64,000 nucleotides of DNA from the NCBI GenBank assembly GCA_963840855.1, contig CAWJBB010000050.1:64001-128000 (forward strand), in the 5' to 3' direction. Shown one piece after another: positions 18,023-35,469 of the stretch. This stretch comes from an uncultured delta proteobacterium. GTDB taxonomy: Bacteria; Desulfobacterota; Binatia; UBA9968. The notes under the pieces were generated by a model. That model had not been told where the DNA came from. It ran no database searches and saw nothing but the letters and a program-made list of their open reading frames with translations. A program made the translations under genes and the position numbers. How positions within the stretch are numbered: position 1 is the first letter of the stretch; each line of letters starts with the position of its first letter.

Positions 18023-18182
18023 TTACTTGATCACCCGATCCGCAGCGCCCGCTCTTTCATACGCCGCCCGAGCCAGCCGAAGCAACATCGGGATTTTCAT
18101 CAAACAGAAAGACGATTGACATCCCACCGGTCCGGCGATATTGCTCGGGCCAGAAAAAAGGAGGTTTAAACCTCCTATACAG
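18023..18182 (+). mobile_element. Repeat B: SBP stop-codon tail fused to an IS91/ISCR-like oriIS end
   Basis: Near-identical to 34063-34223 and 35309-35469; ends ggaggtttaaacctcctatacag; contains TTGACA. Confidence 0.7.
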
Positions 18183-18432
18183 AAAACTCGCAATTGATCG
18201 AGTCTCAATTGGCGCGAACCAATAAGAAACATACTCAGTTTCATTGATTTGATAGCACTGAGGTTGCAGAATGTCGTCGCCGATGAACGAAATCGGTTGG
18301 GTTCCTTGGATGGCCGGTTTACTTGTGCTGGCCCAATAAATATTTTCTGCATCGTTGCCCTGAGTGACTTCGTAAAAATAGCCGAACGATTTAGTGTAAC
18401 TTACCATAAGGGGTTCTCCCTGACTATACAGA

Positions 18433-18846
18433 GTGTGCTACTGGAAGTCACCGCGCGCCATCCAGTACATCCGGTCGAACTCACCGGCCCGCGTTCGTGC
18501 CGCTACTCGGGAGGCTCTTGCCACTCGGAGCGAGCAGCGGCGGCTTGAGGCATTGCGGGAGCTGAGGGGTGTGTCTGTCCCCATGGCTTCAGCCATCCTA
18601 ATGTTGCTCAATCCGAAACGTTACGGCGTGATCGACATCCGGGTGTGGCAGCTTCTGCACGAGGTGGGCACGGTCACCAAGAACGCCGACGGCGTCGGGT
18701 TCAATTTCAAGAACTGGTACCAGTTTCTGGTGGTTCTACGGTATTTCGCCAAGAAACTTGGAGTGACCGCGAGAGACATTGAGCGAACGTTGTTCATCGC
18801 TCACAAGGAATACCAGGTCGGACGTCTCTACAAATACGGGCAGTGA
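18433..18846 (+). pseudogene. 5'-truncated helix-hairpin-helix (glycosylase-like) protein
   Basis: WKSPR...LRELRGVSVPMASAIL...YGVIDIRVW; no good start or RBS. Confidence 0.55.
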
Positions 18847-18931
18847 CTGGCTGCTTAAATTAAGCCAGCCACAACAAATAGATATTGTCTGATCCGCCAT
18901 AATATGATAACGAAATGCGCAGGAGGTCGGT

Positions 18932-19534
18932 GTGCCTACGCTCCACATGAAGAGATTCTATTCTGCCATATCGGGGTGTCTCTTCTTCATTCTAGGTGCC
19001 CTCGCTTTCGCTCAAGGAGTCAGTATTTACGGGCCAGGAGCTGATCAACACTGGCGAGTGCGCTCAGGCTCAGGAAGATCGGGCGAGCCGATCCGTAGCG
19101 GAACACCGTATCGACTGGTCACCGCCGGCGGACAACTGGTAGGAAATTCTAAGGTCCGTGAGGGATTCCGAATTGTTCCAACCAGGGAGGCTGGCGAAAA
19201 CTTTCACATTCGAACCAGAGCGTCGGACGACGGCGGCGTCAAACTCAATGAACCAGTAGCGCTCTATCATTATGGCGCGGGGTATTTCATCGTTCACAAG
19301 AAAGGAGGCGCGGATAGTCTCGGCTGGGCTTTGTGGGATCCTTCACGCGAACCTCGAATGGAAATGCCGAAAGGTGTCTACCAGTGGGAGTTGAGGAGCT
19401 CACCCGACTCTCGCAGCAGAGATCATCGCAGCCGCCCAGCCATAACATTGGAGGTGCTGGGCCTCTTTAATACCTCTGCCAATGCTTATCTTGTGTCAGA
19501 CCGGAAGACGCAAGAGCTTCGTTGGAGGCAGTGA
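18932..19534 (+). CDS. Secreted hypothetical protein
   Basis: RBS aggagg; signal peptide ending ALAFAQ. Confidence 0.65.
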   Translation: MPTLHMKRFYSAISGCLFFILGALAFAQGVSIYGPGADQHWRVRSGSGRSGEPIRSGTPYRLVTAGGQLVGNSKVREGFRIVPTREAGENFHIRTRASDDGGVKLNEPVALYHYGAGYFIVHKKGGADSLGWALWDPSREPRMEMPKGVYQWELRSSPDSRSRDHRSRPAITLEVLGLFNTSANAYLVSDRKTQELRWRQ

Positions 19535-19586
19535 GGAAAGCCTCTAGCAGTTAGCACTGATGCCTATTCATATGACGATCCCAACG

Positions 19587-19925
19587 GGTGACCGTGCCAC
19601 TTGCGAGCATCACACATGACACATCGATGCCGCCAGAGGGGGTCTGGAACGCTCTCGGATCATGCGGCAGCCTGCACGTCAGCTGAGTAGTCAGCCGAGA
19701 AGTGGGGCCACAGGGTCGGCAAACGTTCACTCAGATACACGGCACGCCATGTGAGCGCGGCGGTCACGCCGTCCTCGTGCCACCGTTGCCCGCAGCCTTT
19801 TGCACGGATCATCACGACGGATTTGCACGCTCCCTCGGTCGCCCCGCTCCCGCATGGGAGCCCGACCCGGCACAACGTCGCGTAGCGCATGCGGTCGTTG
19901 TGGCGACGTCTCCCCAGTTTTGAGT
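19587..19925 (-). mobile_element. ISKra4/ISLre2-like transposase 3' remnant
   Basis: MRY...GLPCGSGATEGACKSVV..RAKGCGQRW motif; boundaries approximate. Confidence 0.7.
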
Positions 19926-19976
19926 AGCGCGTTGGTTTAGAGTCCGGCCTACGGAAAGGGTCGGACGATGAAGAAG

Positions 19977-20032
19977 CGGTCCGGCGATATTGCTCAGGCC
20001 AGAAAAAAAGGTGGTTTAAAATTCCTATACAG
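19977..20032 (+). mobile_element. Repeat B, terminal part (oriIS-like)
   Basis: cggtccggcgatattgctcaggccagaaaaaaaggtggtttaaaattcctatacag. Confidence 0.7.
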
Positions 20033-20170
20033 CGATGGGTACTGTGTTAGGTGTCGCATAACGGGGCTTCCGTCAAAGAATGGCCGTTCATCCGTCTTAT
20101 CGTCTCCGCGCCTTCTGAGGATTCCAGGTCGTAGCGAATCAGCGATCGTCTGGAAGCCGGGAGTACAGCA

Positions 20171-20953
20171 ATGACACTTCGCATTCCCAGTTCCTGGTTC
20201 GCGATTGTCATCGTCCCGCTGCTTCTCACGCCGGCGGTTGGCCATCCGGATGCCGCAGCCTTGCAGGACGCCAACAGCATTCGCAACTTCCGGGCTACCA
20301 GCCCCTCGACCGCCGAGCTGCGGGTTACCGTGGACTACACGTTCACGGGTGAGAATTCGGGCGAGGTCACCATCCACGCGGCACCGGAGGAGAGGGGCGG
20401 GGTCTTCAATCCACGGCTCGTAGAGTTCGACGAGATTCCGGTGCAACAGGGGACTCACACCGTCACGCTGACCATCAAACGGCGCGAGGGTGCGGCGGAC
20501 TTCCTGAGCGTGACGGTGCGGGTGTGCATCTCCACGACCGACCAGGCGATCCTGTGCCAGGACTTTCCCCACGAAAAACGCTGGACCGCCGCGGCCCCGC
20601 CAGCGCCGCCCACACCGCCACCCCCCTCGCCACCGGCGCCCGGGACATGCTCGATTAGGGGTGAGGTCACGGGACCACTGCAGGGGGTCATTTCGCCCGA
20701 CAGTCCGGCTTCGCAGCCCATCAAGGTCACACTGAGAAGAATGGTGCTACGGGCGAAGGATGGCGGCCAGCCGAGACGTGTCCCGCTCACCAACCGCCGC
20801 TACGTTTTCGAGAACGTACGCGCCGAAACGACCTACGAGATCTTCCCGGACGAAGGATTCCGATCGGATCCTCCTCGGCGCACCGTGACTTGCAAGGGGA
20901 ACATCCGCCATAGCGGCCTGGATTTCAGGATCACCGGACCGCCGGTGCACTAG
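20171..20953 (+). CDS. Secreted two-domain hypothetical protein with a Pro-rich linker
   Basis: Signal peptide; two beta-rich domains separated by APPAPPTPPPPSPPAP; RBS gggag. Confidence 0.7.
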   Translation: MTLRIPSSWFAIVIVPLLLTPAVGHPDAAALQDANSIRNFRATSPSTAELRVTVDYTFTGENSGEVTIHAAPEERGGVFNPRLVEFDEIPVQQGTHTVTLTIKRREGAADFLSVTVRVCISTTDQAILCQDFPHEKRWTAAAPPAPPTPPPPSPPAPGTCSIRGEVTGPLQGVISPDSPASQPIKVTLRRMVLRAKDGGQPRRVPLTNRRYVFENVRAETTYEIFPDEGFRSDPPRRTVTCKGNIRHSGLDFRITGPPVH

Positions 20954-22035
20954 AGAGCGGCAGCGGCGCCATGCCCGGAAGGTCGAGCTGATCTGCGAAC
21001 ATCCGACTGCAGCCGACGCGTTCGAGGCGATGGCGCGCTGGGCGGCGCAAAGCGCGACGATGGGGGGAAGTGTCATCGAGTGCCGGCGTCTAAGGCCTCT
21101 GGGCAGCGGCCACCGCTCGCTCGTAGAACGCCGTGGCGCTCTCGCACATCTTCAAATACTCCTCGACCGTCGTGCCGAGCCGAGCCATCTCTATCTGAAT
21201 GAATCGCGCCAGGAACGCGTCACAGCCATCCATGCGCGTCGTCAGTTGGAAATTCGTGAGGGAGAAAAAAACCCCGCTAACGCCCCACTCATCTTCCCGG
21301 CGGTTGGGAGCGTGATGCTGGTGTCATCTGTTGGCGTCGCGGATCTGGCGGCCTGCTGTTCGGCGAGCGCGAGCTTGCGCTTTTCGAGTTCGAGGCGCTG
21401 TCCCGCAAGTTCGGCCTCGCGCCGCTCGACACGAATCCGTTCGGCTGCGCCTGTAGCGCCGGCCCCCTGCGCCTACGAGTTGCGCATGAATCGGTGTGCC
21501 GATCGCCGTGAGGAGCGTCGCCGTGAGCACGATGGGACGGAGCAGGGTACGCACCACGGACCGAACTGCATAGCACAGTCGCCCGATGTAGCCGCTCACC
21601 TCGGGACGACGAGTCGCCACCCGACGCGTCCGTCGTCGTCAGCTACGGTCGCTAGACCCACATGAACGTGAGATCCATCCTGTGGCTCGATAAACTCACC
21701 TTGCCGAGGAGAATCGAGGTATAGCCAGTTAATTCAAAAAACCTCTTACCGAAGTCGGAAGCAGATGATCCAGCTCTGTGCGAAGTTGACATAAGACCAC
21801 CTTATCGGATAGTCTCCGGCCAAAGTGACGAATGGAGGCTGCTTTTCTTTGTCCGACTCGCTATCGGCCTGTTGACACCTGGCTCGCAAGCGGCTGATGG
21901 AGCCGGGTTTCAGTTATTCGCGTCGAGATCCAAAAAGCAAATTCCTATCATTCTATCATTTCGTTGGTGCTGCCGTGCTTGCGCGGATGGTTTAGTGTGT
22001 CGTTGCGTTTCAGCCTGCTGATTTGGAGGGCCGTC

Positions 22036-22992
22036 ATGGCGAGCTATATCAACGTCATCAACAACTGGAACAATGGGCAGGGACGGCTCACGGCATACTT
22101 GCACGGATTCGATGTCGGCAGTCATGTGCTGCGCTCCGAGCACAAGACGTGGCTACAGCAGATCGCCTCCGACATTCTCACGACGGGCGCCTTCAAGATG
22201 GCCACGAAGACGAACGCGTTCTGCTGCGTCTGGCTGCTCGGAACAGCGAGTCGAACTGCTCCGAACGCGACGAACGACAGGTTGTCCAAGGACCGAGCAA
22301 ACGAGGTCAAGAAGACGCTCGACTCGCTGCTCGCGAAGAAAGTGGCCTGTGTCATCAAGGAGACCGGCCTTGGCGAGACCATCCCGTTTCTGCAGGGAAA
22401 GCGCGATGGAACCGAGGATCCGCTCGACCGCTCGGTGCTGCTCGTCGCGGAATGGCACACGATTCCGAATTCACAGCCACCGATCATCAAGCGGCCCGAC
22501 CCCGCGACCAAGCCCATCGAAGCCGAGTTCCATGTCTGGGCACTGCGCCATACGGTCATCCTCGCGAAGAAGTGGGAAGTCCACCTCATTGCGAAATGGA
22601 GCGCAGCCCCGAAACCTTTGTATCGAGGTTGGCAGTTCACGGTGAGCGGTCTCGCGGTCAGCCCCGAGGACGTCGTGGACGCACCTCCGGGTGTTTCGCA
22701 GGACGGCATGTATGCCGGTCCAGCGAAGATCGGCTTTCCGTCCGCGAAGTCGCTCGACGGCCTCGACAACAAGAAGATCACGATGCGAACGCAAGGCAGC
22801 ACGCTCGTAGTCAGCATCAAAAGCGCGCTGGCGAACGGCAAGGATCTCGACCTGAGAATGCCGAGCACGACGGAGTGGGAGCTGTCTCAAGTCGGCGGGG
22901 GGTTGGGCAAAGGAAAGCCGCTGTCGGAGCGAGAGCAAGCGGAAGTGGAGGAAGCCTTGAGGATGCTGCGGGGCGAGGGGATTCCGACCTGA
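22036..22992 (+). CDS. OmpA-like domain protein
   Basis: FDVGSHVL...LLGTASRT...NDRLSKDRANEV...GLGE...DRSV; RBS ggagg. Confidence 0.65.
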   Translation: MASYINVINNWNNGQGRLTAYLHGFDVGSHVLRSEHKTWLQQIASDILTTGAFKMATKTNAFCCVWLLGTASRTAPNATNDRLSKDRANEVKKTLDSLLAKKVACVIKETGLGETIPFLQGKRDGTEDPLDRSVLLVAEWHTIPNSQPPIIKRPDPATKPIEAEFHVWALRHTVILAKKWEVHLIAKWSAAPKPLYRGWQFTVSGLAVSPEDVVDAPPGVSQDGMYAGPAKIGFPSAKSLDGLDNKKITMRTQGSTLVVSIKSALANGKDLDLRMPSTTEWELSQVGGGLGKGKPLSEREQAEVEEALRMLRGEGIPT

Positions 22993-23133
22993 CGACCCGG
23001 CAAATAGCGGATCGCCGTGTCGTCGACATCGGATCGCACCGCGACGAGTGAAAACTCGGCGCGCATTGCAACGGCCGCCCATGCGCTCGAGGCTATTGCA
23101 TCTCGTTTCAGAGCGGGCGATGAAAGTCCTGAG

Positions 23134-23200
23134 TGTATAGGAAATTTAACCCACCTTTTTTCTGCCCGGAGCTATATCGCTGAACTGGCGAGCCTGTCAG
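23134..23200 (-). mobile_element. Divergent repeat B / oriIS-like end in inverted orientation
   Basis: Minus strand reads ctgaca...gcgatatagctccgggcagaaaaaaggtgggttaaatttcctataca. Confidence 0.65.
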
Positions 23201-23461
23201 GAAGATGAAAAATTCACCCAAGAAATTCGAATCGACCGCATGACAGGCAACTACGAATGGAAAAGCCGCATAAAGCCCGATGTCCGAAACGGAGTGGATC
23301 AGTGGGGAAAATGCTCTCCCTGCATTGCAAAAAAGCAGTTCTGAGTTATCCGCAGGGCGCCGCGCCTGCTGTTGGAGACTATCCACTGTTCCAGCTCGCC
23401 ATTTATCCGCTCATTCCGTGATGCGCTTTTGCGTGGATCGAGACAATAGGTGACCGAAAGA

Positions 23462-24126
23462 CTAACAGTCCATAGGGCGCTCCCTGGTGATGGCAGCAAA
23501 GGCGTTTTCCAAGTCGCCTAGCCGTTCCAGCTCTACGGATTGAAGCTTAACGTCTAAAGTCTTGGCAGCCCCTTCGGTCTCTTTGAACTGCTGTCTCTGG
23601 CCCAAAAGGAGCTTCTGGACAGCTTCCTTCAGCAGCTCAATTCGTTTTAGGACTGTCTCTGGCGAGCGCGACGAAGCCGTCGTGACTATCGTATAGGTGC
23701 GCAAGAAACTTCCATCTGGTTGCTTCCAGGTATCCCATAAGCCGGCGAACGCGAACGGTTCACCTGACTTGAGCTTGAAGCGCATGGGAACCTTGCCCTT
23801 TCCTTCCTTCCGCCATTCGTAAAAACCATCGGCTAGAACGAGACAGCGGCGATTCCCCAGCAGCGCCTTGAAAGCCGTTTCTCGGCGAGCGTTTCAGCGC
23901 GAGCGTTGATCATCCTGTTACCGATCGCCGGATCTTTAGCCCACCATGGAATCAACCCCCACCGAAACATCTCAAGGTTTCGTTTTCCCGCGGCTTGAAC
24001 AATTACGGGCGCTTCTTGAGTCGGAGCGATATTGTAGCGGGGCTTTAAATCAAAGACTTCGTCGACATCCCAGGTAAGGCGAAGGTCGGAAAATTCAGCG
24101 GGAAAATACGTGTAGCGACCGCACAT
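23462..24126 (-). pseudogene. SRAP (SOS response-associated peptidase/HMCES-like) pseudogene, 3' end fused to an internal SBP fragment
   Basis: MCGRY, RYNIAPTQ, INARAET, frameshift, FAFAGLW...TIVTT, then KRIELLKEAV...DLENAFAAITRERP (SBP-like). Confidence 0.85.
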
Positions 24127-24195
24127 AAACCTTGTCCTTGCCCCGTTTGCGAAAGCGGAAACCTCTGGGGCAAACCCGCATACCACCCAAACGAT

Positions 24196-24633
24196 CTAGC
24201 GATGAATACCTGCACCCGCCTGCGTGAGACCCAATTCCTTATAGGCTTGGTTAAAACAAAATGCGTAAGTGCGGTTTTGGCTCTGGCCAAGGCATTTGCT
24301 GAGCCTATCCTTCACATGTTCGAACACCGCCGTCTCTGAGCGTATCGTAACTGTATGGGTCTGTTCCTTTTTGATATCGCCGCCCAAGGTAACGACCTTG
24401 AGATTAACGCTTCCTGTTGCGCCTTTCTCGACGACAAATGTGATACTCATTTCGAAGTCCTTTACGAGAAACATCGGGACGAGGTCGGCTTGAGTCTGAC
24501 GCCTTTGCGCCTCAATCAAGCCATTTCGAACAGCAAGAACCAAATCAGCGATATTAATTGCGTCTTGGGCAGACGAAGTGCCTACTCCTCCCACAATCAG
24601 CACAAATAAAGAAGCCACAGATCTAAGTTTCAT
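24196..24633 (-). CDS. Secreted Trypco2-like domain protein
   Basis: Signal peptide; IADLVLAVRNGL...FLVKDFEMSITFVVEKGATGSVNLKVVTLGG...THTVTI. Confidence 0.65.
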   Translation of the reverse strand: MKLRSVASLFVLIVGGVGTSSAQDAINIADLVLAVRNGLIEAQRRQTQADLVPMFLVKDFEMSITFVVEKGATGSVNLKVVTLGGDIKKEQTHTVTIRSETAVFEHVKDRLSKCLGQSQNRTYAFCFNQAYKELGLTQAGAGIHR

Positions 24634-24734
24634 GCCTCACCTCATGTAGTTGGCCGTTCTCGGCTTACGCGGGGCCTAGTGTATAACGTCTTATCCTCCA
24701 AAGTCCGAACACAATCAATCCCTGGAGCACTCGC

Positions 24735-24938
24735 CTAATTTCCATCCCAAAAAACTCGGCCAACCCGCGCATGCCCTGATCGAACCTGATACCAGTATCT
24801 TGAAATCGTACGACTTCCACCACGGAGCCCAGGCGGCCGTCTTTGAGGATCTTTCCGAAGGGGATGCCAATAATGGGTATAAGGCGGCCCAGGAACGGCG
24901 CTGCCGGTGATCCAATAGCCTTTGTAGCGTTCCATCAT
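24735..24938 (-). pseudogene. Frameshifted copy of the small SRAP-coupled ORF
   Basis: MMERYKGYWITGSAVPGPPYTHYWHP identical to 38283..38522, then out of frame. Confidence 0.75.
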
Positions 24939-25611
24939 AGCAGTTTGCCTTCAGCCGAGAGGATGCATTCCGGCGAGTCATTTCGGGGATTGTTCACGAT
25001 CGGTGGTACGTCGTAGCCTTCCATCTTTTCCGGCGGATATGGTTTCAGCAAAGTGAGCGCGTGGGCGATTTCGTCGCCAACCGCAATCCATTTCAGGGCG
25101 TCGTCGTTACTCAGCATAGCGGGCATCCGGTCATGGATCGGGCGTAGCACGTCGTTGGGTTCCGTCGTGACAATCGTATAGGTGCGCAAGAGATTTCCAT
25201 CCGGTTGTTTCCAGCTATCCCACAAACCGGCGAACGCGAACGGCTCTCCAGACTTGAGCTTGAAGCGCATGGGGGCTATTCGCTTTCCTCCTTTCCGCCA
25301 CTCGTAAAAGCCATCGGCAAGAACGAGACAGCGGCGATTCCCCAGCAGCGCCTTGAAAGCCGTTTCTCGGCGAGCGTTTCAGCGCGGGCGTTTATCATCC
25401 TGTTTCCAATGGCCGGATCTTTGGCCCACCAGGGAATCAATCCCCAGCGGAACAGCTTAAGGGTTCGTTTTCCCGCCGCTTGAACGATCACGGGCGCTTC
25501 TTGAGTCGGGGCGATGTTATAGCGGGGCTTTAAATCAAAGACTTCGTCGACATCCCAGATAAGGCGAAGATCGGAGAATTCACGGGGAAAATAGGTATAA
25601 CGACCGCACAT
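24935..25611 (-). pseudogene. SRAP pseudogene (single frameshift)
   Basis: Two ORFs, 25276..25611 and 24935..25270, jointly align to the intact 38519..39196. Confidence 0.88.
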
Positions 25612-25635
25612 GCTGTTGTTTCATATCGCTATGCC

Positions 25636-25832
25636 GGACCGCGGTCAAATTCTCCCCGCGCATCATGCAGAAGGCGCGCAGGGACTACGGACAGGAATTT
25701 TGGTGGACGCCGGGCGACCCTACGCCGGCCAGGGCGCCGGATGTGGAGGCGGCGGTGGCAGACTGAAAAGATCGGATAACTATCGACCTGTCGGCACTTA
25801 GAATATCGAGAACGTTGCGGGCCACTGAAACG
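25636..25832. repeat. Repeat C: ~200-bp element upstream of SRAP
   Basis: Near-identical to 39218-39416; partial copy at ~27590-27683. Confidence 0.85.
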
Positions 25833-26428
25833 CACTTATGAACGAAGTCTGCCTCGAGTCTGCCGAACGGATGACCTTTCGCCATGACCACCTCTTTGAT
25901 TCTATCCCGCATGGCACACTCGTCCATGGCCAAACCGTGATCCTTATGATACTGACTGACGAACTCGTAAAATTTCGCCGTATCGGTATCGTTTAAGGAA
26001 TCCCATGTGCTTGGGCTAACCCAATGGTCCAACGCTCGCTCTGTAAGCGATGAAAATATCATAATTGTGGATAGGGGTATCGGTTCAGTTTGATGCGATT
26101 GATTTACTCTTTTGTAATGCGGCTCGGCTGAATGATTTTTTGACTTTGTCTCAGCAGCTCAATGTCTTCCAAATATTTGTGACTGGTTACAACGTTTAGA
26201 ATCTAACAACCTTTTTTGTGTGATCGTCGATATCGTGCAAGTTGTCCGGCCCTAGAGCAATCCGATCCTCTGGGAGCAAGCCTTGTGCCGTCTTATGCGG
26301 AAATATGGATTGCTTGCTTTTCAGGAGGTTACAGATGAAGCTCGCCGGGGTGTCCCACATCAGAGAAATTGAACGTGACTGAATGTCCGAGTTATGAGAA
26401 TCGGTCTTCCTTGTAAGAGTAAGTTCGC

Positions 26429-27074: not shown

Positions 27075-27338
27075 CGGTTTCAGCAAAGTGAGGGCATGGG
27101 CGATTTCGTCATCAACAGCAAGCCATTTGACGGCTTCGTCGTTGCTCAGCATGGCGGGCATCCGGTTATGGATCCGCCGCAACACGTCGTTGGGGTCCGT
27201 CGTGACAATCGTGTAGGTACGCAATAGATTTCCATCCGGTTGTTTCCAGGTAGCTTTAAACCGAAGATTTCGTCGACATTCCAGGTAAAGCGAAGGTCGG
27301 AAAATTCACGGGGGAAATAGGTGTAACGGCCCGCACAT
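27075..27338 (-). pseudogene. Internally deleted SRAP remnant
   Basis: SRAP start segment (..GRYTYFPREFSDLRFTWNVDEIFGLK) joined directly to the WKQPDG..RTYTIVTT..HNRMPAML segment. Confidence 0.8.
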
Positions 27339-27772
27339 GATGGGCAGGTATTAGTTCGGGCCAATAGGAAATCAAGGCGCGCGGGATAGGGGCGGCGATC
27401 ACGAATTAGACTCAAAGAGCAATCTCGCCATGAATTGCGATCTGCAGCAATCTGCCGGCAGCTTGAGCCCAATCTAACTTAAGCGGCTTGATTTCGTTCT
27501 TGTAGGCTTCGCTTGATAGATGGCGCTTCAGTTCTTTCTCGTCGGTTACAGGCATCGTTCATTTTCCTTTCTATGTCCTGGTGACGTTGTGCCGGCGAGG
27601 GCGCCGGAGTTAGGGGCGGCGGTGGCAGACTGAAAAGATTTGGATGACTATCGACCTGTCGCACTTAGAAAGTCGAGAACGTTAGAGCAATGACATTTAT
27701 TCTTGTGTTCAACTGTTTAGTATCGCGGCGCGGCTCTGCTGAATGATTTTTTCACTTTGTCTCAGCAGCTTT

Positions 27773-28057
27773 TTAATTTTTTTCAAAAGTTGATGACTGG
27801 TTGTATTTAAACGTTTCGATTGAGCCAACGTTTATTCTATATCGTGCATTTGTCCGACTCCTAGAGCAAGAGATTTCCTGCAATTTTCTTATGTTGTGAC
27901 CCCATGCCGGTTGACGCTCGCGCATAATATCCCGGCGCGCCTGAAACCAGGTCCCTTTGGGCCAGTCCCAGTTGCAGTGGGGTAGCTCGTCCTCGTCGTA
28001 GTATCCGCTATTTACCGGGCTCTGCGTGAAAATGTTCTGCCAAGTATCAGCAGCCAT
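27773..28057 (-). CDS. Hypothetical protein
   Basis: 94-aa ORF with RBS aaggagga; its 3' part is homologous to ~26160-26260. Confidence 0.45.
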   Translation of the reverse strand: MAADTWQNIFTQSPVNSGYYDEDELPHCNWDWPKGTWFQARRDIMRERQPAWGHNIRKLQEISCSRSRTNARYRINVGSIETFKYNQSSTFEKN

Positions 28058-28401
28058 CGGGCTTTCCTCCTTTATAAGGTTTACGTTTGGAGAAATCCAA
28101 ATATATCATCAATCTAGGCCGCAAGTTCGATGCCGTTGCTTACGGCCCGATAAAGGAACGTATCCCGATGGTGTTTTTATCTCTGTTCAGAATTGGACCG
28201 TTTTGAAATATAATTTGAGCAGCAACCCTATACGCGCGGATGCGCCGGAGTTAGGGGGGCGGTTGGAGATTAGTAGCGTGGGCTTCGTTTTTGATAAAAC
28301 GTCAAGCGTGCATTTAAGGAGCCAACGAGGCTGTTGTATATCGAAGAACCAAGCGGAAACAAAACTTTTTGCGAGCGTTCGGTTGTACCCTGGACAAGCA
28401 T

Positions 28402-28485
28402 CTACGCCTGCTGCGCTTCGGCTGCAACTCCAAGAGCAAGCAAGACCACTACGAAAAGGATTGATGGCACCGCAGCCTTCTTCAT
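28402..28485 (-). pseudogene. SBP signal-peptide-only remnant (MKKAAVPSILFVVVLLALGVAAEAQQA*)
   Basis: Matches the paralog N-terminus; conserved leader upstream. Confidence 0.85.
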
Positions 28486-28595
28486 TGCGCACCTCGTTTC
28501 GAGCGTTTTGTATCACGCGGATACAGATAAAGGAAAGTGTGATTTACGGCGGAAGGCGATAGGGATTGGTCAAATAAGAAGGCAAGGGCCACCCT

Positions 28596-28664
28596 GAGAA
28601 TTGAACTGTACGCAACAGTCTCGTCTTGTAGGATGAAGTCGTAGGAGAATTCAGTTCAATCCTG
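28596..28664. repeat. Palindrome A, divergent spacer
   Basis: attgaactgt...ggagaattcagttcaatcctg. Confidence 0.8.
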
Positions 28665-28688
28665 GCAGGGCTGCTTGGTTTTCTGCCA

Positions 28689-28815
28689 TCACTTGATCAG
28701 CCTACTCGCCCGGGCAAGCACCTCCGGCGGTATCAGACCGATCTGTTTTGCGGTTTTGAGATTTATCACCAGCTCGAACTTTGTCGGCTGCTCCACAGGC
28801 AGGTCGCCTGGCTTG
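28689..28815 (-). pseudogene. SBP C-terminal remnant
   Basis: [40 protein letters not shown]. Confidence 0.85.
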
Positions 28816-28876
28816 CAGTGGAGATGTGATGAGTTAGCATGAACAGAGCAATTCATCATTAATGCGGAGGTGATCT

Positions 28877-29188
28877 ATGCGATTTCTAGTCAAGGTGAAC
28901 ATTCCTGTCGAAGCCGGGAACAGGGCTGCGAAGGCGGGAAAGCTCGGCACAACCATCCAATCTATACTGGCGGATTTGAAGCCCGAGGCCGTGTATTTCA
29001 CGGACGACAATGGTCAACGGACGGCGTTTCTCTTCCTCGAAATGCAGGACGCTTCGCTGATCCCCGCAATTGCGGAGCCGTGGTTCCTCGCGTTCAATGC
29101 GAGCATTGAGATTCACCCGGTGATGGTACCTGACGACCTTGCTAAGGCTGGAGGCGCGATCGAGCAAGCAGTCAAGAAATACGGCTGA
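28877..29188 (+). CDS. Small hypothetical protein (ferredoxin-like / DUF3303-like fold suspected)
   Basis: RBS ggaggt; LKPEAVYF.DDNGQRTAFLFLEMQDASLIPAIAEPWF. Confidence 0.8.
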   Translation: MRFLVKVNIPVEAGNRAAKAGKLGTTIQSILADLKPEAVYFTDDNGQRTAFLFLEMQDASLIPAIAEPWFLAFNASIEIHPVMVPDDLAKAGGAIEQAVKKYG

Positions 29189-29276
29189 TTGATCGGCGCC
29201 ATCTAACCGCCGCGGGAGCCGATAATTGAGTATGCTATTTTACTTAGTCACGACTCAACGGCATAGCGTTAGCCTT

Positions 29277-29337
29277 GAGATTGAACAACGGACAAATCTC
29301 ACAGGATTTGTTAGACGGCGAATTCAGTTCAATCCTG
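29277..29337. repeat. Palindrome A with a small left deletion
   Basis: gagattgaacaacggacaaatctcacaggatttgttagacggcgaattcagttcaatcctg. Confidence 0.88.
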
Positions 29338-29361
29338 GTATCGCCGCTTCGCTTTCTTTGC

Positions 29362-30348
29362 TCACTTGATCACTCTATCCGCTCTCGCCAGCACGTTTGG
29401 TGGAATCGTCAGGCCGATCTGCTTGGCGGCTTTGAGATTGATGATGAAGTCGAACTTCTTCGGCTGCTCCACCGGGAGATCGGCAGGCTTGGCGCCTTTG
29501 AGAATCTTGTCAACATAGGTCGCGGCGCGGCGGAACAAGTCGGTAATGCTCACGCTATAGGTCATAAGCCCGCCGTCCTCTACATTTTCTGGCCAAGAAT
29601 ATATTGCGGGAAGCCGGCTCTTTACCGCGAATTCTGCAGTCTGCGTTCGCTGAGAAAGGAAGACGGGGCTTGTCAACACCAGGACGGCGTCGGCACGCCC
29701 CTTGCTCGAGGCTTGAAATGCACTCTCAATATCCTTCGGAGCTAATACTTCCAGGTACTGAAGCTGCACCTTCAACGCCTCTGCGGCGAGTTCCGTCTCT
29801 TTTAACATTTGTGCCGTGCCCGCTCTGGTCGAATTGCCGATGACGGCCACCCGCGTGAGCTTCGGAACGATCTCTTTCAGAAGCTCTAGTTGCTTTCCGC
29901 TTATCTCCGGGGCGAGAGTCGACAATCCAGTAATATTCCCTCCCGGTCGCGCAAGGCTGGCGACGAACCCCGAGCCGACAGGGTCATCATCAAGCGCCAT
30001 GACAATAGGAATCGTGGAAGTTGCTTCCTTGGCGGGACGGGTAACTGTCGGACCGGCCGAGACGATGATGTCCACCCTGAGACGCACCAGTTCGGCTGCA
30101 AGCTCACTTAGGCGATCTACTTTTCCCTCCGCATATCGCCACTCAATGGCGATGTTTTTCCCCTCCACGTATCCCAACTCGCGTAGCCCCTGCTTGAATG
30201 CCTCGATGCGGGCCGAGATAGTCGAAGGGGAGACAGCGCTTAGGAACCCTAGGCGTGGGACTTTCTTCGCCTGCTGCGCCTCGGCTGTAACTCCAACAGC
30301 AAGCAGTATCACTGCAACCAGGATTGATGGCACCGCAGCTTTCTTCAT
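29362..30348 (-). CDS. ABC-type substrate-binding protein
   Basis: Family motifs as above. Confidence 0.93.
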   Translation of the reverse strand: MKKAAVPSILVAVILLAVGVTAEAQQAKKVPRLGFLSAVSPSTISARIEAFKQGLRELGYVEGKNIAIEWRYAEGKVDRLSELAAELVRLRVDIIVSAGPTVTRPAKEATSTIPIVMALDDDPVGSGFVASLARPGGNITGLSTLAPEISGKQLELLKEIVPKLTRVAVIGNSTRAGTAQMLKETELAAEALKVQLQYLEVLAPKDIESAFQASSKGRADAVLVLTSPVFLSQRTQTAEFAVKSRLPAIYSWPENVEDGGLMTYSVSITDLFRRAATYVDKILKGAKPADLPVEQPKKFDFIINLKAAKQIGLTIPPNVLARADRVIK

Positions 30349-30457
30349 TGCGCACCTTGTTCTTGCGGGTTTTTATCACGGATACGGTAGCTGAGAAAAG
30401 TGTTATTTACGGCAGAAGGAGAACCAGATTCATCGAGGGGGAAAAGGCTAATTTCGA

Positions 30458-30533
30458 CGCAGGATTGAACTGTACGACGCAACGGGCAAATCTCAGAGGA
30501 TTTGTTAGATGGAGAAATCAGTTCAATCCTGCG
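30458..30533. repeat. Palindrome A, full copy
   Basis: cgcaggattgaactg / cagttcaatcctgcg. Confidence 0.9.
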
Positions 30534-30557
30534 ATTCGCTACTAAGTGTTTCTGCCA

Positions 30558-31531
30558 TCACTTGATCACTCTATCCGCTCTCACCAACACATTCGGCGGA
30601 ATCGTCAGGCCGATCTGTTTCGCGGTCTTCAGATTGATGATGAACTCAAACTTCGTCGGCTGCTCCACCGGCAGGTCGGCAGGCTTGGTGCCCTTGAGGA
30701 TCTTGTCTACATAATACGCCGCACGCCTGAAACTTTCAGCTTCGTCGGCTGAATAGGACATCAGGCAACCAGCCTCCACGTAATCACTTCTTTCACACAT
30801 GGATGGTATTCGGTTCTTTATGGCAAGGTCAGCGATTAACTTTCGATGACTAATGGTCACACCCTGGGTATCGACAATGAGCGCGCTCACACGCCCGCTG
30901 GTCGCCACTTGGAATGCTCCCTCGAAATCAGGGTTTGGACCGCGAACCTCTAGCGAGACAATCTGCACCTTTAGTGCACGCGCCGGAGACTCGTAATCTG
31001 TCGTCAATCCACCCAGGACTCCAATGCGCGACACTCCCGGAATCGCCTCGTTAAGCAATTCCAGCCGTTACCGCTTAAGTCCCTGGTGAGTCTCGTGAGC
31101 CCTGTGATATTTCCGCCTGGATGCGCCAAGCTATCGATTAGCCCAAGCGCGACTGGATCGCCGGTAATCATCATCACGATGGGAATCGTCTTGGTCGCCT
31201 GTTTGGCTGCACGGATACCTGAATTAGCTGCGGAGACAAGCACATCGACCTTGAGCTGTACGAGCTCAGCCGCGAAGCCTCGAAGACGTTCCTCCACCCC
31301 CTCAGCATAGCGATACTCGATAAGGATGTTTTTCCCCTCAATATGACCGAGATCCCTTAGCCCTTGGCGGAATGCATTCTCGAACAGATCGGGACTAGTA
31401 GGCGTCGGCTTGACCCTGTTCGACAAAAATCCGATCCGCGGGCCTTTGCCCGGCTGCTGCGCTTCGGCTGTAACTCCAAGAGCAAGCAACACCACTGCAA
31501 TCAGGATTGATGGCACCGCAGCCCTCTTCAT
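30558..31531 (-). pseudogene. ABC-type SBP with a 1-bp frameshift; near-duplicate of 39577..40551
   Basis: 974 bp versus 975 bp; cagccgttacc versus cagccgtttacc at ~31069. Confidence 0.88.
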
Positions 31532-31646
31532 TGCGCACCTCGTTTCGAGCATTATGTATCACGCCGATAGAGATAAAGGAAAGTGTGATTTACGGGCGGA
31601 AGACGACAGGTATTAGTTGAGTGAGAAAACCCGATTTTAAGCCTGA

Positions 31647-31716
31647 GATTGAACTGATCGACGCAACGGGCAAATTTCACAGGTTTTTGTTCGATGGAGA
31701 AATCAGTTCAATTCTG
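31647..31716. repeat. Palindrome A, full copy
   Basis: gattgaactga...aatcagttcaattctg. Confidence 0.88.
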
Positions 31717-31740
31717 GCATCGCTGCTTGGTTTTCTGCCA

Positions 31741-32739
31741 TCACTTGATGACTTTGTCTGCTCTCGCCAGCACATTCGGCGGGATCGTTAGGCCGATCTG
31801 CTTTGCCGTCTTCAAATTGATTACCAGCTCGAACTTCGTCGGCTGCTCCACCGGAAGATCCGCAGGTTTGGCTCCCTTCAGGATTCTGTCCACGTAGTAT
31901 GCGACGCGCCGGTAGCTGTCTGCTTCGTCCGCCCCGTAGGAGATGAGCCCACCAGCTTCTGCAAAATTTCTGTTGTTGTACACCGACGGCAAGCGGCTCT
32001 TAAACGCAAAGACCGCGAGCCGTTTTTGGTTAGCAAACACCAGCGGGCCCGAGGGGAGCACATAGAGTCCATCCGGTCGCTGCTTGTTTAACGCAGCAAA
32101 TACCTTCTCGAAACCGTCCACATCTCGTACCTCCCAAGGCTGAATAGTCAACTTCAGCGCACGCGCCGCGACCGGGAGAACCTCTTTCATGTCGAGTTCA
32201 GCGCCTAGATTGGCCGGATCGTAGAGAACCGCGACACGGGCAAGTTTGGGAACGGCCTCTTTGAACAGCTCCAGCCGCTTGCCGCTTAGTTGTCTGCTAA
32301 CGTTTGTGATGCCGGTGACGTTGCCGCCGGGACGCGCAAGGCTATCGACCAGGCCTGACTCGACAGGATCGAGGCCACGGCCCACCATAACGATGGGAAT
32401 CGTCTTGGTCGCATTCTTGGCCGCCTGGATCCAGCTGTTCCCTCCTGCTACTACGATGACATCGACCTTGAGGCTTATCAGCTCGGCCAGAAACCTCGGG
32501 CCTCGATCGCGCTTCCCCTCCGCATATCGGTACTCACTGGCGATGTTCTGTCCTTCTATGTAGCCCAGCTCGTGCAGAGCCAGCCGAATTGTCTCAAAAA
32601 AGGTGGACTCAGTAGCTGGATCGTTCGCCGACAGATACCCTATCCGCGGGACCTTCTTCGGCTGCTGCGCGTCGGCTATGACTCCAACAGCAAGTAGGAT
32701 CACTACGAACAGGATTGACGAGACACCAGCTTTTTTCAT
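31741..32739 (-). CDS. ABC-type substrate-binding protein
   Basis: Family motifs; start placed at MKKAGV. Confidence 0.93.
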   Translation of the reverse strand: MKKAGVSSILFVVILLAVGVIADAQQPKKVPRIGYLSANDPATESTFFETIRLALHELGYIEGQNIASEYRYAEGKRDRGPRFLAELISLKVDVIVVAGGNSWIQAAKNATKTIPIVMVGRGLDPVESGLVDSLARPGGNVTGITNVSRQLSGKRLELFKEAVPKLARVAVLYDPANLGAELDMKEVLPVAARALKLTIQPWEVRDVDGFEKVFAALNKQRPDGLYVLPSGPLVFANQKRLAVFAFKSRLPSVYNNRNFAEAGGLISYGADEADSYRRVAYYVDRILKGAKPADLPVEQPTKFELVINLKTAKQIGLTIPPNVLARADKVIK

Positions 32740-32846
32740 TGCAGACACCATTTGCGCATTACACGGAAGGTAGCAGAGAAAAGTGACATTTACGACAGAA
32801 GGCGAAAGGTATTCCGTCGAGTGGAAAAACCAGATTTTTAGCCTGA

Positions 32847-32885
32847 GATTGAATTGAACGACGCATCCGGCAAATCTCACAGGAT
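32847..32885. repeat. Palindrome A, left arm plus part of the spacer
   Basis: gattgaattgaacgacgcatccggcaaatctcacaggat. Confidence 0.8.
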
Positions 32886-32926
32886 GCAGTCAACAGAGAG
32901 GGATTAGTTCCGCGCCACGTTTAACG

Positions 32927-33058
32927 CTCGCCTCCCGCACAACCTCACGAGGGTTTTTGTCTTCACGCAAGCCGACGAAAGCGATTGCCGTAGATGCGCG
33001 TCCGGCGTCCACTTGGCAAACTCGATGTGGCCACTTTCATCGACAGCCACAATTTCGA
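32927..33058 (-). pseudogene. Internally deleted remnant of the ATP-dependent ligase gene
   Basis: EIVAVDESG joined to IEFAKWTPDAHLR; matches ~9907-9932 and ~9210-9309. Confidence 0.8.
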
Positions 33059-33103
33059 TCAAGAATTTGAAGCTCTTGAATGAAGCCTTATGGAGGAAAT
33101 GAC

Positions 33104-33532
33104 TCAAGAGCTGCGTCGATAGTCCAGAAACAATCCAGCTACTCTTTTGACGAGATCATCTATAACACGCCGGGTGGATTCGAGCTGCGCGCCAGCTTCT
33201 TTCCTAGGATCGGAAACCGGCCAATATTCCCATCTCGTCCGTGATGGAAAACTTGGAACGGGACCATCGAGGCTTCCCACGACTATGATTAAGTCAATAT
33301 CGTCGCGAGAGATTTCACCTAATCCTTTGCTGGCCCGCGTCAGTTTGATTCCGCGTTCCGCTAACGCCTCAACCGTTCCTCTGTCGGTGGGTCCAGGAAT
33401 AATACCTGCGCTGAAAATTTGCACTTGAGGAGAGTCTAGCCGCATTGCGATCGCTTCTGCTATCGGACTCAGGCAGGCGTTGTCCTGGCATAAGAACAGG
33501 ATTCTCCTATCGCGAATAATGTTTCTGACCAC
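33104..33532 (-). CDS. ArsC/LMW-PTP-fold protein
   Basis: ILFLCQDNACLSPIAEA, FSAGI, EYWPVSDP. Confidence 0.8.
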   Translation of the reverse strand: MVRNIIRDRRILFLCQDNACLSPIAEAIAMRLDSPQVQIFSAGIIPGPTDRGTVEALAERGIKLTRASKGLGEISRDDIDLIIVVGSLDGPVPSFPSRTRWEYWPVSDPRKEAGAQLESTRRVIDDLVKRVAGLFLDYRRSS

Positions 33533-33945
33533 TTTCTCCCCCCAATGATTTCAATGATTGACCCGAATTGTTTTACAGTACTGGTGCGGCTCTCAATTTT
33601 AGGAACGGCTTCCAGGCAACACCCTTTGGCGAGTGATCCGGCCAACGGAAAAGCTTCAGCCCAAAATCTATGGAACCGGGAATAGTAAGACTCCATCCGG
33701 AATTTGTCTTGACATTGTGCGCCATTCGATTGATATCTGCGGCGGCCTGGGTTGAGTTGGCGAGAAAGGTTTGACAAATCCACCGCACAAGGACAGGAGA
33801 TGAAAGAGGGTGCGTTACACGTTTTGTGATAATAAGAGCAGTCTGAGACGGCTAATGAAAGGCGCAACGGTTACTCGGCCACGCATATCATAACGACCAA
33901 GATGTCGGGGTGCCGCTCTTGGCAGCCAGAAGGCCAGACCACCAT

Positions 33946-34048
33946 GAGACTGAACTAAATGACGCGCGTCAATCGAATGCGACGTAGGATTGGTTTTGCG
34001 ATGGGGATGAATTCAGAGCGCTCAGATGGAGAATTCAGTTCAATCCTG
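33946..34048. repeat. Palindrome A with a longer, divergent spacer
   Basis: gagactgaacta...agatggagaattcagttcaatcctg. Confidence 0.7.
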
Positions 34049-34062
34049 AAATCGCCGCTTGG

Positions 34063-34223
34063 TTACTTGATCATCCGATCCGCAGCGCCCCTTTTTTCAT
34101 ACGCCGCCCGAGCCAGCCGAAGCAACATTGGGATTTTCATCAAACAGAAAGACGATTGACATCCCACCGGTCCGGCGATATTGCTCAGGCCAGAACAAAA
34201 GGTGGTTTAAAATTCCTATACAG
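34063..34223 (+). mobile_element. Repeat B (SBP tail ADRMIK* plus oriIS-like end)
   Basis: Ends ggtggtttaaaattcctatacag. Confidence 0.72.
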
Positions 34224-34341
34224 AAAATCGCCTTTGGACGATCTGTCCTTTAATGGAAGGCTCTAAAGATCGGCCAAACAAAAGTTCAAATGTGATCGGT
34301 GTTTAATCCAGTGGATAGAAATAGCTCATTGGCAGAGTCGC

Positions 34342-34810
34342 ATGCTTGGATTGTTCAAGTCAGCATCATTTGTTGACCCACAGCTTGGCGAGTTACATCG
34401 CTCGCGCGGTGCATGGCGCGGAACACTCAAACTCGACGGTGAAGCGCCGGTAACTCTCATATTAAGCGGGAGCCGGCGCCGAAGCGTTGCGCATCGCACG
34501 GTCCTTGCCTTCAGACTACGCGTCCTGGCGGCCTGCTATCGAACGGGAGCTATTCGATCACTACTCACCATACGCGGAGACTGTTGCCGCAGGAGAACTG
34601 GATGCCCCTTCTTCGGGTCTACCGCCTATCGATGCTCCCTCCTCGGTCTGGGGTCATACGACCGTGGCGTTTGTTCAGGTAACTCCCCTTGGCGGTGTTC
34701 TCACTGTCGAGCTCGGTTATCGGGTCGCCTGGGATGAAGAACACACCTTGGGTGCTCGCTTTCGGGCTGGCCAGCTGTTTGAGTTATGCGGTAGTGTGTT
34801 AGCGCCATGA
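34342..34810 (+). pseudogene. Frameshifted hypothetical protein, cassette-like
   Basis: MLGLFKSASFVDPQLGEL... continues in a second frame to ...YRVAWDEEHTLGARF; GCCCAAC (attC R''-like) lies just after the stop. Confidence 0.6.
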
Positions 34811-35152
34811 CAGCGGCGCCCAACAACAGAGACGTTAACACTCTATCGAATTGTTTCTCCTCAATCCAAGAGTGCGCGTGAGTAGATTCGCCAGGCAAGG
34901 TTTTTAAAATGCGATTGGCGCCCAATCCAAGGGATAAAAGTAGCTCGTTAGCAGGGTCGTCGAGTAAAAGAAAACTAGGAATGTCAGGGTCGCCAGGGAT
35001 AGGCGAAGAAGTTTTGCCACGGATAAATCCTCCCTGTGTTGTTGCTTAGTGCCCGATATCGCAAATCCACGCCAAACGCCAGAGTTTCTAATTCGAGGGG
35101 AACACGTAGAGAGGTTCTGAGGCGTCGATCAGTTAGGCGATCTCTCCGAGGC

Positions 35153-35210
35153 TTCGACATCGACATCGACATCGAACACTGCCCGAACTGCGGCGGCAGC
35201 TTGAACATAG
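35153..35210 (+). mobile_element. IS91/ISCR-family transposase C-terminal scrap
   Basis: FDIDIDIEHCPNCGGSLNIA resembles the VFxIDIxxCPxCGGxLxIIA motif of IS91/ISCR transposases. Confidence 0.7.
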
Positions 35211-35226
35211 CACATTCGCATAACCG

Positions 35227-35294
35227 CAGAATTGAACTGATCGACGCAACGGGCAAATCTCACAGGATTTGTTAGACGGAGAAATTCAATCCTG
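35227..35294. repeat. Palindrome A, near-full copy
   Basis: cagaattgaactgatcgacgcaacgggcaaatctcacaggatttgttagacggagaaattcaatcctg. Confidence 0.88.
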
Positions 35295-35308
35295 GCATCG
35301 CCGCTCGG

Positions 35309-35469
35309 CTACTTGATCACTCGATCCGCAGCGCCCCCTCTTTCATACGCCGCCCGAGCCAGCCGAAGCAACATTCGGATTTTCATCAAACAGAAAGAGG
35401 ATTGACATCCCACCGGGTCCGGCGATATTGCTCAGCCAGAAAAAAAGGTGGTTTAAAATTCCTATACAG
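35309..35469 (+). mobile_element. Repeat B (SBP tail ADRVIK* plus oriIS-like end)
   Basis: Ends ggtggtttaaaattcctatacag. Confidence 0.72.

Follow-up and report, generated by a model that had tools for sequence, protein, structure and literature searches.

Repeat B of a Binatia contig as probable relic oriIS ends of ISCR-like elements

The stretch of DNA analysed here (the window), 64,000 nucleotides of contig CAWJBB010000050.1 from an uncultured delta proteobacterium of the Binatia, contains five copies of a short sequence, repeat B, that stop at the same sharp boundary. These copies are most probably the relic right-hand (oriIS) ends of ISCR-like rolling-circle insertion sequences (IS), left as stubs without a transposase gene, a reading to which we assign a probability of about 0.7. 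Repeat B is a further member of the ISCR-like kind and not a new type of element. An initial annotation had already taken it for an oriIS end of the IS91/ISCR type, and this is upheld by the match of its terminus to those of known elements and by contiguity with the C-terminus of a Y2 transposase. The same annotation had regarded palindrome A, found to the left of two B copies, as the opposite end (terIS) of mini-elements of 240-280 bp that also built up arrays of substrate-binding protein (SBP) genes, a proposal that fares much worse. The identification of repeat B accounts for five repeats and one pseudogene scrap in the annotation of the window, and sets B apart from palindrome A and the SBP arrays, which need a separate explanation.

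To our knowledge, almost all known ISCR elements come from resistance plasmids carried by clinical bacteria. How they work, in particular the placement of variable genes at the oriIS side and the origin of stubs, is still debated on the basis of sequence contexts. The window and 26 related loci represent a soil lineage of the ISCR clade. All copies observed in it are right-end stubs, and they often stand directly before an accessory gene read in the same direction. Such a family is natural material for testing whether oriIS stubs are mobilised in trans and whether they act as portable promoters, and it could show whether a constant inner partner is general to ISCR-type capture.

Five copies of repeat B in the window

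The terminal 22-mer pattern GGNGGKTTAAANNTCCTATACA was written so as to cover all five window copies; it occurs five times in the window (plus-strand ends at 18181, 20031, 34222 and 35468, and a minus-strand match at 23134-23155), against a chance expectation of 0.00 from shuffles. A nucleotide profile of the 3' region of the family (the 372-nt right end) recovers the same five copies and detects no sixth in the window, covering profile positions 250-372 in B1, B4 and B5, 318-372 in B2 and 307-372 in B3. Pattern count, alignment and profile agree in this respect with the positions and shared end first described. The window copies are the last 55-121 bp of an untranslated tail of ~220-230 bp that lies 3' of the transposase gene.

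On the outer side, the DNA past TATACA differs among the aligned copies, and the right flanks show no relatedness in any of the 10 pairs (local alignment, p 0.29-0.99). The reported divergence of the flanks is thus confirmed, a weak likeness of B1 and B4 aside: anchored at the end, these two agree at 18 of 24 bases with 2 gaps (rank 3 of 406 flank pairs). The cores of B1, B4 and B5 are 94-97% identical to one another, and the window cores are ~92-95% identical to several loci in metagenome-assembled genomes (MAGs), B1 being 95% identical to locus L012 and B3 91% identical to L017. The window copies come from at least two subfamilies, with B3 representing the second. A repeat search of the window found no inverted-repeat pair at the B copies, only one end of which is constant. 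Assignment to the miniature inverted-repeat transposable elements, which have terminal inverted repeats and a target-site duplication, was considered and rejected.

The copies, and the features joined to them, are as follows.

18024..18061, plus strand: left part of B1; reverse complement of the last 7 SBP codons and stop (ADRVIK-stop) with ~18 nt of filler, closest to the SBP gene ending at 40760
18062..18182, plus strand: B1 core; last ~121 nt of the ISCR-like element to oriIS, with TTGACA-N15-GATATT at 18116-18142
19977..20032, plus strand: B2; 55-nt oriIS stub without a -35 box (profile 318-372)
23134..23200, minus strand: B3; 66-nt oriIS stub, inverted, second subfamily, with CTGACA-N16-GATATA (23200-23173)
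33984..34048, plus strand: decayed palindrome A left of B4 (dG -9.1, z 0.0)
34064..34102, plus strand: left part of B4; SBP 3' end (ADRMIK-stop) and filler, junction as in B1 and B5
34103..34223, plus strand: B4 core to oriIS, with TTGACA-N15-GATATT at 34156-34182
35162..35209, plus strand: transposase scrap DIDIEHCPNCGGSLNI, corresponding to about residues 433-448 of 486-aa relatives (profile 2-33, E 0.0055)
35225..35294, plus strand: palindrome A left of B5, right arm with a 4-nt deletion (dG -7.5, z +1.5)
35310..35348, plus strand: left part of B5; SBP 3' end (ADRVIK, TAG stop) and filler
35349..35469, plus strand: B5 core to oriIS, with TTGACA-N16-GATATT at 35402-35429

The terminus and the transposase

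In five related loci (L004, L008, L012, L016 and L017), homology to repeat B reaches 323-405 nt inward and enters the tail of an open reading frame (ORF) that ends ...CGGSLKIIAAIEDPPVIVKILTHLGLPTRAPPRAPAQRFDLFQTI and stop. The ORF tails next to B match the NCBIfam model ISCR_clade_Ia ('ISCR element clade Ia family transposase'), and a longer transposase scrap in locus L002 also matches Pfam Y2_Tnp. When the L002 scrap was searched against proteins, 248 longer relatives came up; many measure 483-493 aa and carry zinc-binding and Y2 domains (PF14319+PF04986), and the C-termini of the long relatives read ...VFDIDIEHCPNCGG.LKIIAAIEDPPVI..., matching the scrap in the window. That scrap, noticed from the start as an IS91-type remnant to the left of the last unit, proved to be just this: full-length IS91-family transposases find it in the window by tblastn at E 2e-5 to 8e-5, and the similarity may extend weakly back to ~35075.

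The transposase P0027 scores 125.7 bits on NF033538 transpos_IS91, just passing the cutoff of 125, and 499.6 bits on NCBIfam NF052416 ISCR_clade_Ia, below the cutoff of 925. ISCR clade Ia is the closest model, yet P0027 falls outside it, and the B element is best placed near the ISCR group of the IS91 family, though not within the narrow clade Ia as modelled by NCBI. Over 93-96% of its length, P0027 shares 50-53% identity with the transposases of ISCR1 and ISVsa3 (ISCR2). On plasmids, no match was found by tblastn of a 69-aa transposase tail or by blastn of A+B (207 nt), while a 136-aa transposase piece and P0027 do match.

The consensus for ISCR/IS91 oriIS ends given in the initial annotation was checked on DNA 3' of three annotated IS91-family transposase genes from plasmids and holds for all three. 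The termini compare as follows.

ISCR1: ...AAAAAGGTGGTTTATACTTCCTATACCC, 232 nt after the stop codon
ISVsa3/ISCR2: ...GGGCGTTTATTCTTCCTATACG, ~236 nt after the stop codon
ISCR upstream of rmtC: ...AAAAAGGGCGGTTGAACTTCCTATACCC, ~257 nt after the stop codon
Repeat B: ...AAAAAGGTGGTTTAAAATTCCTATACA, ~220-230 nt after the stop codon

Repeat B and the three plasmid ISCR elements share the conserved terminus ...GGTTT.A..TTCCTATAC, and in the alignment of B to IS91/ISCR ends its last 26 nt match the ISCR1 oriIS at 24 of 26 positions (AAAAAGGTGGTTTATACTTCCTATAC versus AAAAAGGTGGTTTAAAATTCCTATAC). The central identification made at the outset is therefore right. The family identity of B, its terminal position and its sharp outer boundary may be taken as established.

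Related loci and the relic state of the family

A scan for the 22-mer through one genome per species (596 Gb) returned 27 loci in 28 rows. Homology extends inward past the 22-mer in all loci except L007 (Nitrososphaeria), which matches the 22-nt pattern only and was rejected as a family member; since a 19-base pattern should give a few matches in 596 Gb, L007 was treated as chance. The loci lie in MAGs of Binatia, 'delta proteobacteria', Verrucomicrobia, Acidobacteria, Methylomirabilota, Pseudolabrys, a gammaproteobacterium and others, these taxon names being the labels of the MAG records. Near-identical cores in MAGs labelled as several phyla may bear indirectly on rolling-circle mobility.

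No whole transposase gene was found in the 27 loci or in the window by tblastn of P0027, nor in the window by profile. Transposase remnants contiguous with B span at most residues 318-486 and occur in 8 of the 27 loci, and tblastn of P0027 finds transposase sequence at a single place in the window, the 16-residue scrap (48 bp). The inner breakpoints lie at 41, 42, 55, 56, 65, 66, 69, 74, 78, 79, 95, 107, 120-121 (n=4: three window copies and L002), 136, 255, 276, 323 and 370-405 nt (n=4), and at 228-234 nt (n=4), where they coincide with the transposase stop codon. No common tetranucleotide (GAAC, CGAG or similar) was found at the 31 inner boundaries. Each of the loci L004, L016 and L017 begins with CAT(C/T)GAA, a sequence that falls at two separate places in the element; these CATCGAA starts, and a CGAG ~8 nt inside the 120-nt breakpoint, are leads only.

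Two pairs of loci share the same right flank and differ in inner extent (L010 and L011, 78 versus 107 nt; L020 and L022, 69 versus 74 nt). The insertions being the same, at least part of the length variation arose after insertion. Outward promoters at ISCR oriIS ends and one-ended transposition are both documented (PMC6218425, PMC13181058). The parent element would have arrived by rolling-circle transposition initiated at oriIS, and the stubs would stem from incomplete (one-ended) transposition and, at least as often, from later deletion on the inner side and recombination.

Some loci show how such stubs come to be joined to other DNA. In L002 (558-1351), GCCGCC microhomology marks the fusion of a 120-nt B stub with codon ~105 of an SBP gene. 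At the DNA level this gene is 81-85% identical to the window SBP genes, a value that also holds between these and the SBP genes of a Binatia MAG. The element is broken at the same point as in the window chimeras described below, whereas the position in the SBP gene is different. In L017 (4574-5800), a putative IS110-type transposase gene, recognised by eye from its N-terminal motif, splits an ISCR-like remnant, with transposase residues 415-451 and 451-486 on its two sides. Contig VBKE01000280 (L025-L027) carries three direct B copies of 255, 228 and 56 nt, spaced 2.8 and 1.4 kb apart, each of which precedes a different co-oriented gene (for the second a SIR2_2 protein, for the third a lactonase). 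The same DNA is present in L005 and L023, in a MAG labelled as another phylum but of the same sample series, so that the binning is doubtful. The tail of the family contains a perfect 13-bp hairpin with the loop TGAGTTC (L012, 1420-1560, minus strand, and equivalents; dG of the segment -37.1, z -2.2), which may be a second oriIS palindrome as described for IS91 and IS801.

Chimeric copies and the SBP junction

B1, B4 and B5 are built alike, the terminal ~121 nt of the element being preceded by a 21-nt SBP 3' end and ~18 nt of filler. That three copies begin with the last codons of an SBP, as first noticed, is borne out: the 21-nt part consists of the stop and last codons of the PF04392 SBP genes of the window, aligns to their 3' ends (reverse complements of ADRVIK-stop, ADRMIK-stop and ADRVIK-stop) and is closest to the gene ending at 40760. 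Comparison by eye of the filler with the SBP region fused in L002 gave no convincing similarity. Palindrome A precedes B4 and B5 as the initial annotation had it, but is not directly joined to either, since ~55 nt lie between A and the B core (15 nt, the 21-nt SBP 3' end and ~18 nt of filler). Each of the two A copies is decayed.

The breakpoint and filler are the same in B1, B4 and B5, and B4 and B5 have lost the same 10 nt between the SBP stop and palindrome A, which indicates one ancestral junction. The three copies thus descend from one chimeric stub, in which a 121-bp IS end had become attached to the final codons of an SBP gene and the palindrome A usual at that place. The A+B junction therefore goes back to a single event, the outcome that the initial annotation had named as counting against its proposal. 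Identity falls from the core (0.94-0.97) through the SBP and filler part (0.90-0.95) to A (0.77 over aligned columns, 0.68 over length); for B4 and B5 the values are 0.97 for the core, 0.90 for the middle part and 0.68 for A, an inequality that speaks against A and B having been copied together as one element. B5 is the only copy with a transposase scrap, and there 137 nt made up of A, SBP end and filler take the place of profile positions 34-249. The chimeric stub would then have been copied, or recombined, into three places, and the sharp outer end favours transposase action in this step. Palindrome A and the SBP codons would be passenger DNA, comparable to the 3'-conserved segment (3'-CS) of ISCR1, and not a transposition terminator.

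It could be argued that five full-length elements inserted independently and simply eroded in place, that segmental duplication produced the chimeras, that no transposase took part once the first insertions were made and that no function is left. The unequal inner extents of orthologous insertions (L010/L011, L020/L022), the lack of a common tetranucleotide at the inner boundaries and the weak similarity of B1 and B4 past the end are all as this would predict, and Bardaji et al. came to the same conclusion for most IS801 fragments (PMC3189936). Such a history is nevertheless highly improbable for repeat B as a whole. All three chimeras stop at the oriIS end, a boundary that segmental duplication would not respect three times, and their cores are 94-97% identical to one another and ~95% identical to MAGs labelled as other phyla, against 68-90% for adjacent DNA, a disparity that suggests recent spread, conversion or constraint. 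A strong co-orientation bias of the downstream genes also argues against it.

Palindrome A and the SBP arrays

The arm motif of palindrome A has 21 matches in the window against 1.8 expected, grouped into 15 sites, of which nine lie just 3' of SBP genes or gene fragments.

Palindrome A sites in the window: 2358-2429, 28596-28664, 30460-30531, 40661-40732, 44052-44123 and 10 further

The repeat is conserved and ~75 nt long, with arms of 13-15 nt that stand ~42 nt apart and enclose a second small hairpin, always just 3' of genes and in constant orientation relative to the upstream gene. A canonical copy from an array (30450-30545) folds at -21.5 kcal/mol (z -5.8). Binatia locus L017 has an A copy, inner hairpin sequence included, 3' of an unrelated gene (2748-2815), and half a copy lies 3' of a hydrolase gene in L011 (2781-2791), in the same orientation relative to the upstream gene. 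Its position 3' of SBP and unrelated genes in several genomes marks A as a lineage-wide 3'-of-gene repeat that was carried along with the SBP 3' end. It could be an element like the repetitive extragenic palindromes or an RNA structure of 3' untranslated regions; Rfam at gathering thresholds finds two tRNAs in the whole window and nothing at A or B.

The SBP genes (PF04392, ABC_sub_bind) form three tandem arrays on the minus strand (2457-4470, 28405-32739 and 39580-44765), which include a frameshifted copy (30561-31531) and fragments (28405-28485, 28692-28862 and 44151-44765); the members ending at 3475 and 42968 are without palindrome A. The paralogues are 51-66% identical as proteins, and neither pattern nor profile search of the window found a B end inside the arrays.

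These data bear on the earlier proposal that A serves as a surrogate terIS, and that A+B mini-elements moved in trans and built the SBP arrays. The proposal had its attractions: the arms of A contain GAAC and GTTC, and the terIS of IS91-family elements pairs a palindrome with such a tetranucleotide; the two units of A, SBP 3' end and B (B4 and B5) lie in non-SBP contexts; right-end mini-fragments of IS801 do transpose (PMC3189936); and A and B occur together elsewhere, in L010 and L011. It is nonetheless very unlikely to be correct. Three of the five B copies lack A, among them B1, which has the same junction, and 13 of the 15 A sites have no adjoining B. The A copies beside B4 (-9.1 kcal/mol, z 0.0) and B5 (-7.5 kcal/mol, z +1.5) show no stronger folding than shuffled sequence. 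Identity between the two is 0.68, compared with 0.97 between the cores, and the A of B5 is nearer to the array copy at 40718 (0.87) than to that of B4. SBP stop-codon DNA lies between A and B, so that A came with the SBP 3' flank, and the A of L010 and L011 is found past the oriIS end, where a terIS would not be expected. Nor does rolling-circle copying explain the SBP arrays, because these are devoid of B and their members, at 51-66% protein identity, are old.

The outward promoter-like motif and downstream genes

The motif TTGACA...GATATT pointing outward, as originally described, is present in B1 and B4 (N15) and in B5 (N16); B3 has the variant CTGACA-N16-GATATA, and B2 is too short to contain a -35 box. 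In the family, the TTGAC of the -35 box is invariant in all 19 copies that are long enough, GATAT is nearly so, and the spacer is 15 nt.

The longest ORF near the B end is co-oriented in 24 of 29 copies (P 2.7e-4), or in 22 of 27 by a conservative count (P 7.6e-4). The crude count understates co-orientation, as L014 was scored as opposite although a co-oriented 333-aa PLD gene starts 13 nt past its end. Co-oriented ORFs of at least 100 aa starting no more than 300 nt from the end number 18, several of them at 2-40 nt. Pfam matches at E<=1e-5 were obtained for 14 of the 17 downstream ORFs submitted, and the families include alpha/beta hydrolase, amidohydrolases, lactonase, radical SAM, acyl-CoA dehydrogenase, CoA-transferase, subtilase, SIR2_2, TIR_2 and PLDc_2. 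Loci L010 and L011 have in common a segment of 71 nt of B and a hydrolase gene, 96.7% identical in otherwise different DNA, which starts within B and stops at the first arm of an A copy; its bounds suggest that B and A both serve as recombination handles. For ISCR1, POUT promoters have been described in the oriIS region with variable, co-oriented genes downstream (PMC6218425). Taken together with the predicted promoter, this arrangement suggests that the stubs at present may serve mainly as dispersed homology and as an outward promoter for the co-oriented gene downstream. Downstream of B4, a DUF6985-like gene (34342-34810) is split over two overlapping frames and is probably a pseudogene. Past the end of B5 lies an aldolase gene, at 35523.

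A possible role in gene capture

An alternative is that the stubs are not dead, and that a terIS-less ISCR right end, together with a dispersed repeat, forms a chromosomal platform for gene capture and promoter delivery in soil bacteria, of the type represented by ISCR1 with its 3'-CS. A stub fused to the SBP 3' end and A would generate, by one-ended rolling-circle replication, circles consisting of SBP3'/A, B and adjacent genes, and these would integrate by homologous recombination at SBP3'/A repeats to give the tandem order A-SBP3'-B4/Y1, A-SBP3'-B5/Y2, A-SBP39580. Integration would place a conserved outward promoter directly upstream of hydrolases and of SIR2-, TIR- and PLD-domain genes, and the units would spread between phyla. 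Such a platform, if real, would be the environmental parallel to the complex integron formed by ISCR1 and its 3'-CS.

Several features fit: a constant inner partner with variable DNA past oriIS, as in ISCR1 with 3'-CS; the order A/SBP3'/B4, 1.0 kb, A/SBP3'/B5, 4 kb, A and the intact SBP gene at 39580; the dissimilarity of the A copies of B4 and B5, as expected for one resident and one incoming copy; the segment in L010 and L011 that is bounded by B and A; and the three direct B copies of VBKE01000280 with different genes after each. The fit is structural only, however, and we regard this scheme as unlikely, if less so than the mini-element proposal. The A at 39536 is not specially like those of B4 and B5 (0.67 and 0.65), no circle junction or empty site was seen, the VBKE01000280 array has no constant partner to the left of its B copies, and the active transposase that is needed was found neither in the window nor in the 27 loci.

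Observations that weigh against the relic-end reading

Some observations do not sit easily with the view of repeat B as relic oriIS ends, or weaken a part of it. Neither the 27 loci nor the window contain a full-length element with this exact end, and the link from B to an intact transposase runs through C-terminal fragments and through proteins without genomic context. The B core forms no significant fold as DNA on either strand (z +0.19 and -0.21), and the 13-bp hairpin of the family tail sits inward of the portion kept by the window copies. The four bases that follow ...CCTATAC are A, then G/T/A/C, then two variable bases, and not CTTG or GTTC. These are the target tetranucleotides reported for IS91, IS801 and IS1294 (PMC6218425, PMC13181058). 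As the corresponding flanks of ISCR1, ISCR2 and the rmtC-linked ISCR (CCGG, GTTG and CCAG) are likewise neither CTTG nor GTTC, the tetranucleotide rule may not apply to ISCRs.

With regard to the copying of B1, B4 and B5, the weak likeness of B1 and B4 over 24 nt past the end, and the far greater divergence of the A parts than of the cores, favour recombination or selection on the core. A consensus promoter scan reports only B5 (spacer 16), B1 and B4 being missed because the spacer range of the scan is 16-18 nt. Finally, co-orientation of the downstream genes could instead come from strand-biased insertion of single-stranded DNA at replication forks.

Comparison with known systems

The closest likeness is to ISCR1, the IS91-like 'common region' element of complex class 1 integrons, which resembles B in its terminus, in ending ~230 nt past the transposase stop codon, in having outward promoters (predicted for B) at oriIS followed by variable co-oriented genes, and in a constant foreign partner on the inner side with terIS missing. 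Toleman et al. reportedly proposed a model of ISCR1 capture. The two systems differ in that the transposase of the B family is ~50% identical, its hosts are soil MAGs and not clinical gammaproteobacteria, there is no integron or resistance gene, an SBP 3' end and palindrome A stand in the place of the 3'-CS, and all B copies are transposase-less stubs. ISCR1 is always joined to 3'-CS (PMC13393415). ISCR2/ISVsa3 and its relatives belong to the same transposase clade (52-53% identity), and the transposase of the ISCR upstream of rmtC is 45% identical over 72 aa; both have the ...TTCCTATAC terminus, ~236-257 nt past the stop, and in the rmtC-linked element a gene starts 40-60 nt past the element end. 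In contrast to B, these are intact plasmid elements, and their sequence upstream of the last ~25 nt is unrelated to it.

Non-autonomous Helitrons are likewise rolling-circle, transposase-less elements with one defined end and gene fragments at the other, although they are eukaryotic, depend on a Rep/helicase enzyme and have no homology to B. IS91 and IS1294 start at oriIS, terminate imprecisely and lack inverted repeats (one-ended transposition), as proposed for B, but the CTTG/GTTC beside their oriIS is not seen after B. The miniatures of IS801 also have a constant right end and variable length. They differ in that they begin with a GAAC-like tetranucleotide, whereas no such common motif was found at the 31 inner boundaries of B, and in that their mobility was shown by entrapment, whereas B is known here from sequence alone. 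Right-end IS801 fragments of 229, 360 and 679 nt transpose in one-ended fashion, and most IS801 fragments found in genomes resemble products of reorganisation that provide homology (Bardaji et al. 2011, PMC3189936). Precedents exist for stubs that keep a constant right end, for outward promoters and for a foreign partner that is constant at the terIS side. A search of literature titles found none on ISCR/oriIS-type elements in soil MAGs, which is weak evidence of absence as it covered titles only.

Other features near the stubs

The DNA between the convergent stubs B2 and B3 (20033-23133) has a GC content of 0.61 and 0.57, against ~0.53 nearby, and its ORFs have no family matches except a weak OmpA-like one; it may be foreign DNA. 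To the right of B3, at 23462-25611, lie two split copies of SRAP (SOS-response-associated peptidase), each broken into an N- and a C-terminal ORF, with a Trypco2-domain ORF (24196-24633) between them, and repeats of 88-90% identity from this region reach ~27.3 kb. On the other side, a 471-aa ORF (13886-15301) matches virion structural and tail-spike families of phages (PHROG E 1.6e-69) as well as the Peptidase_S74 chaperone domain, and so a prophage remnant probably adjoins the stub-rich region.

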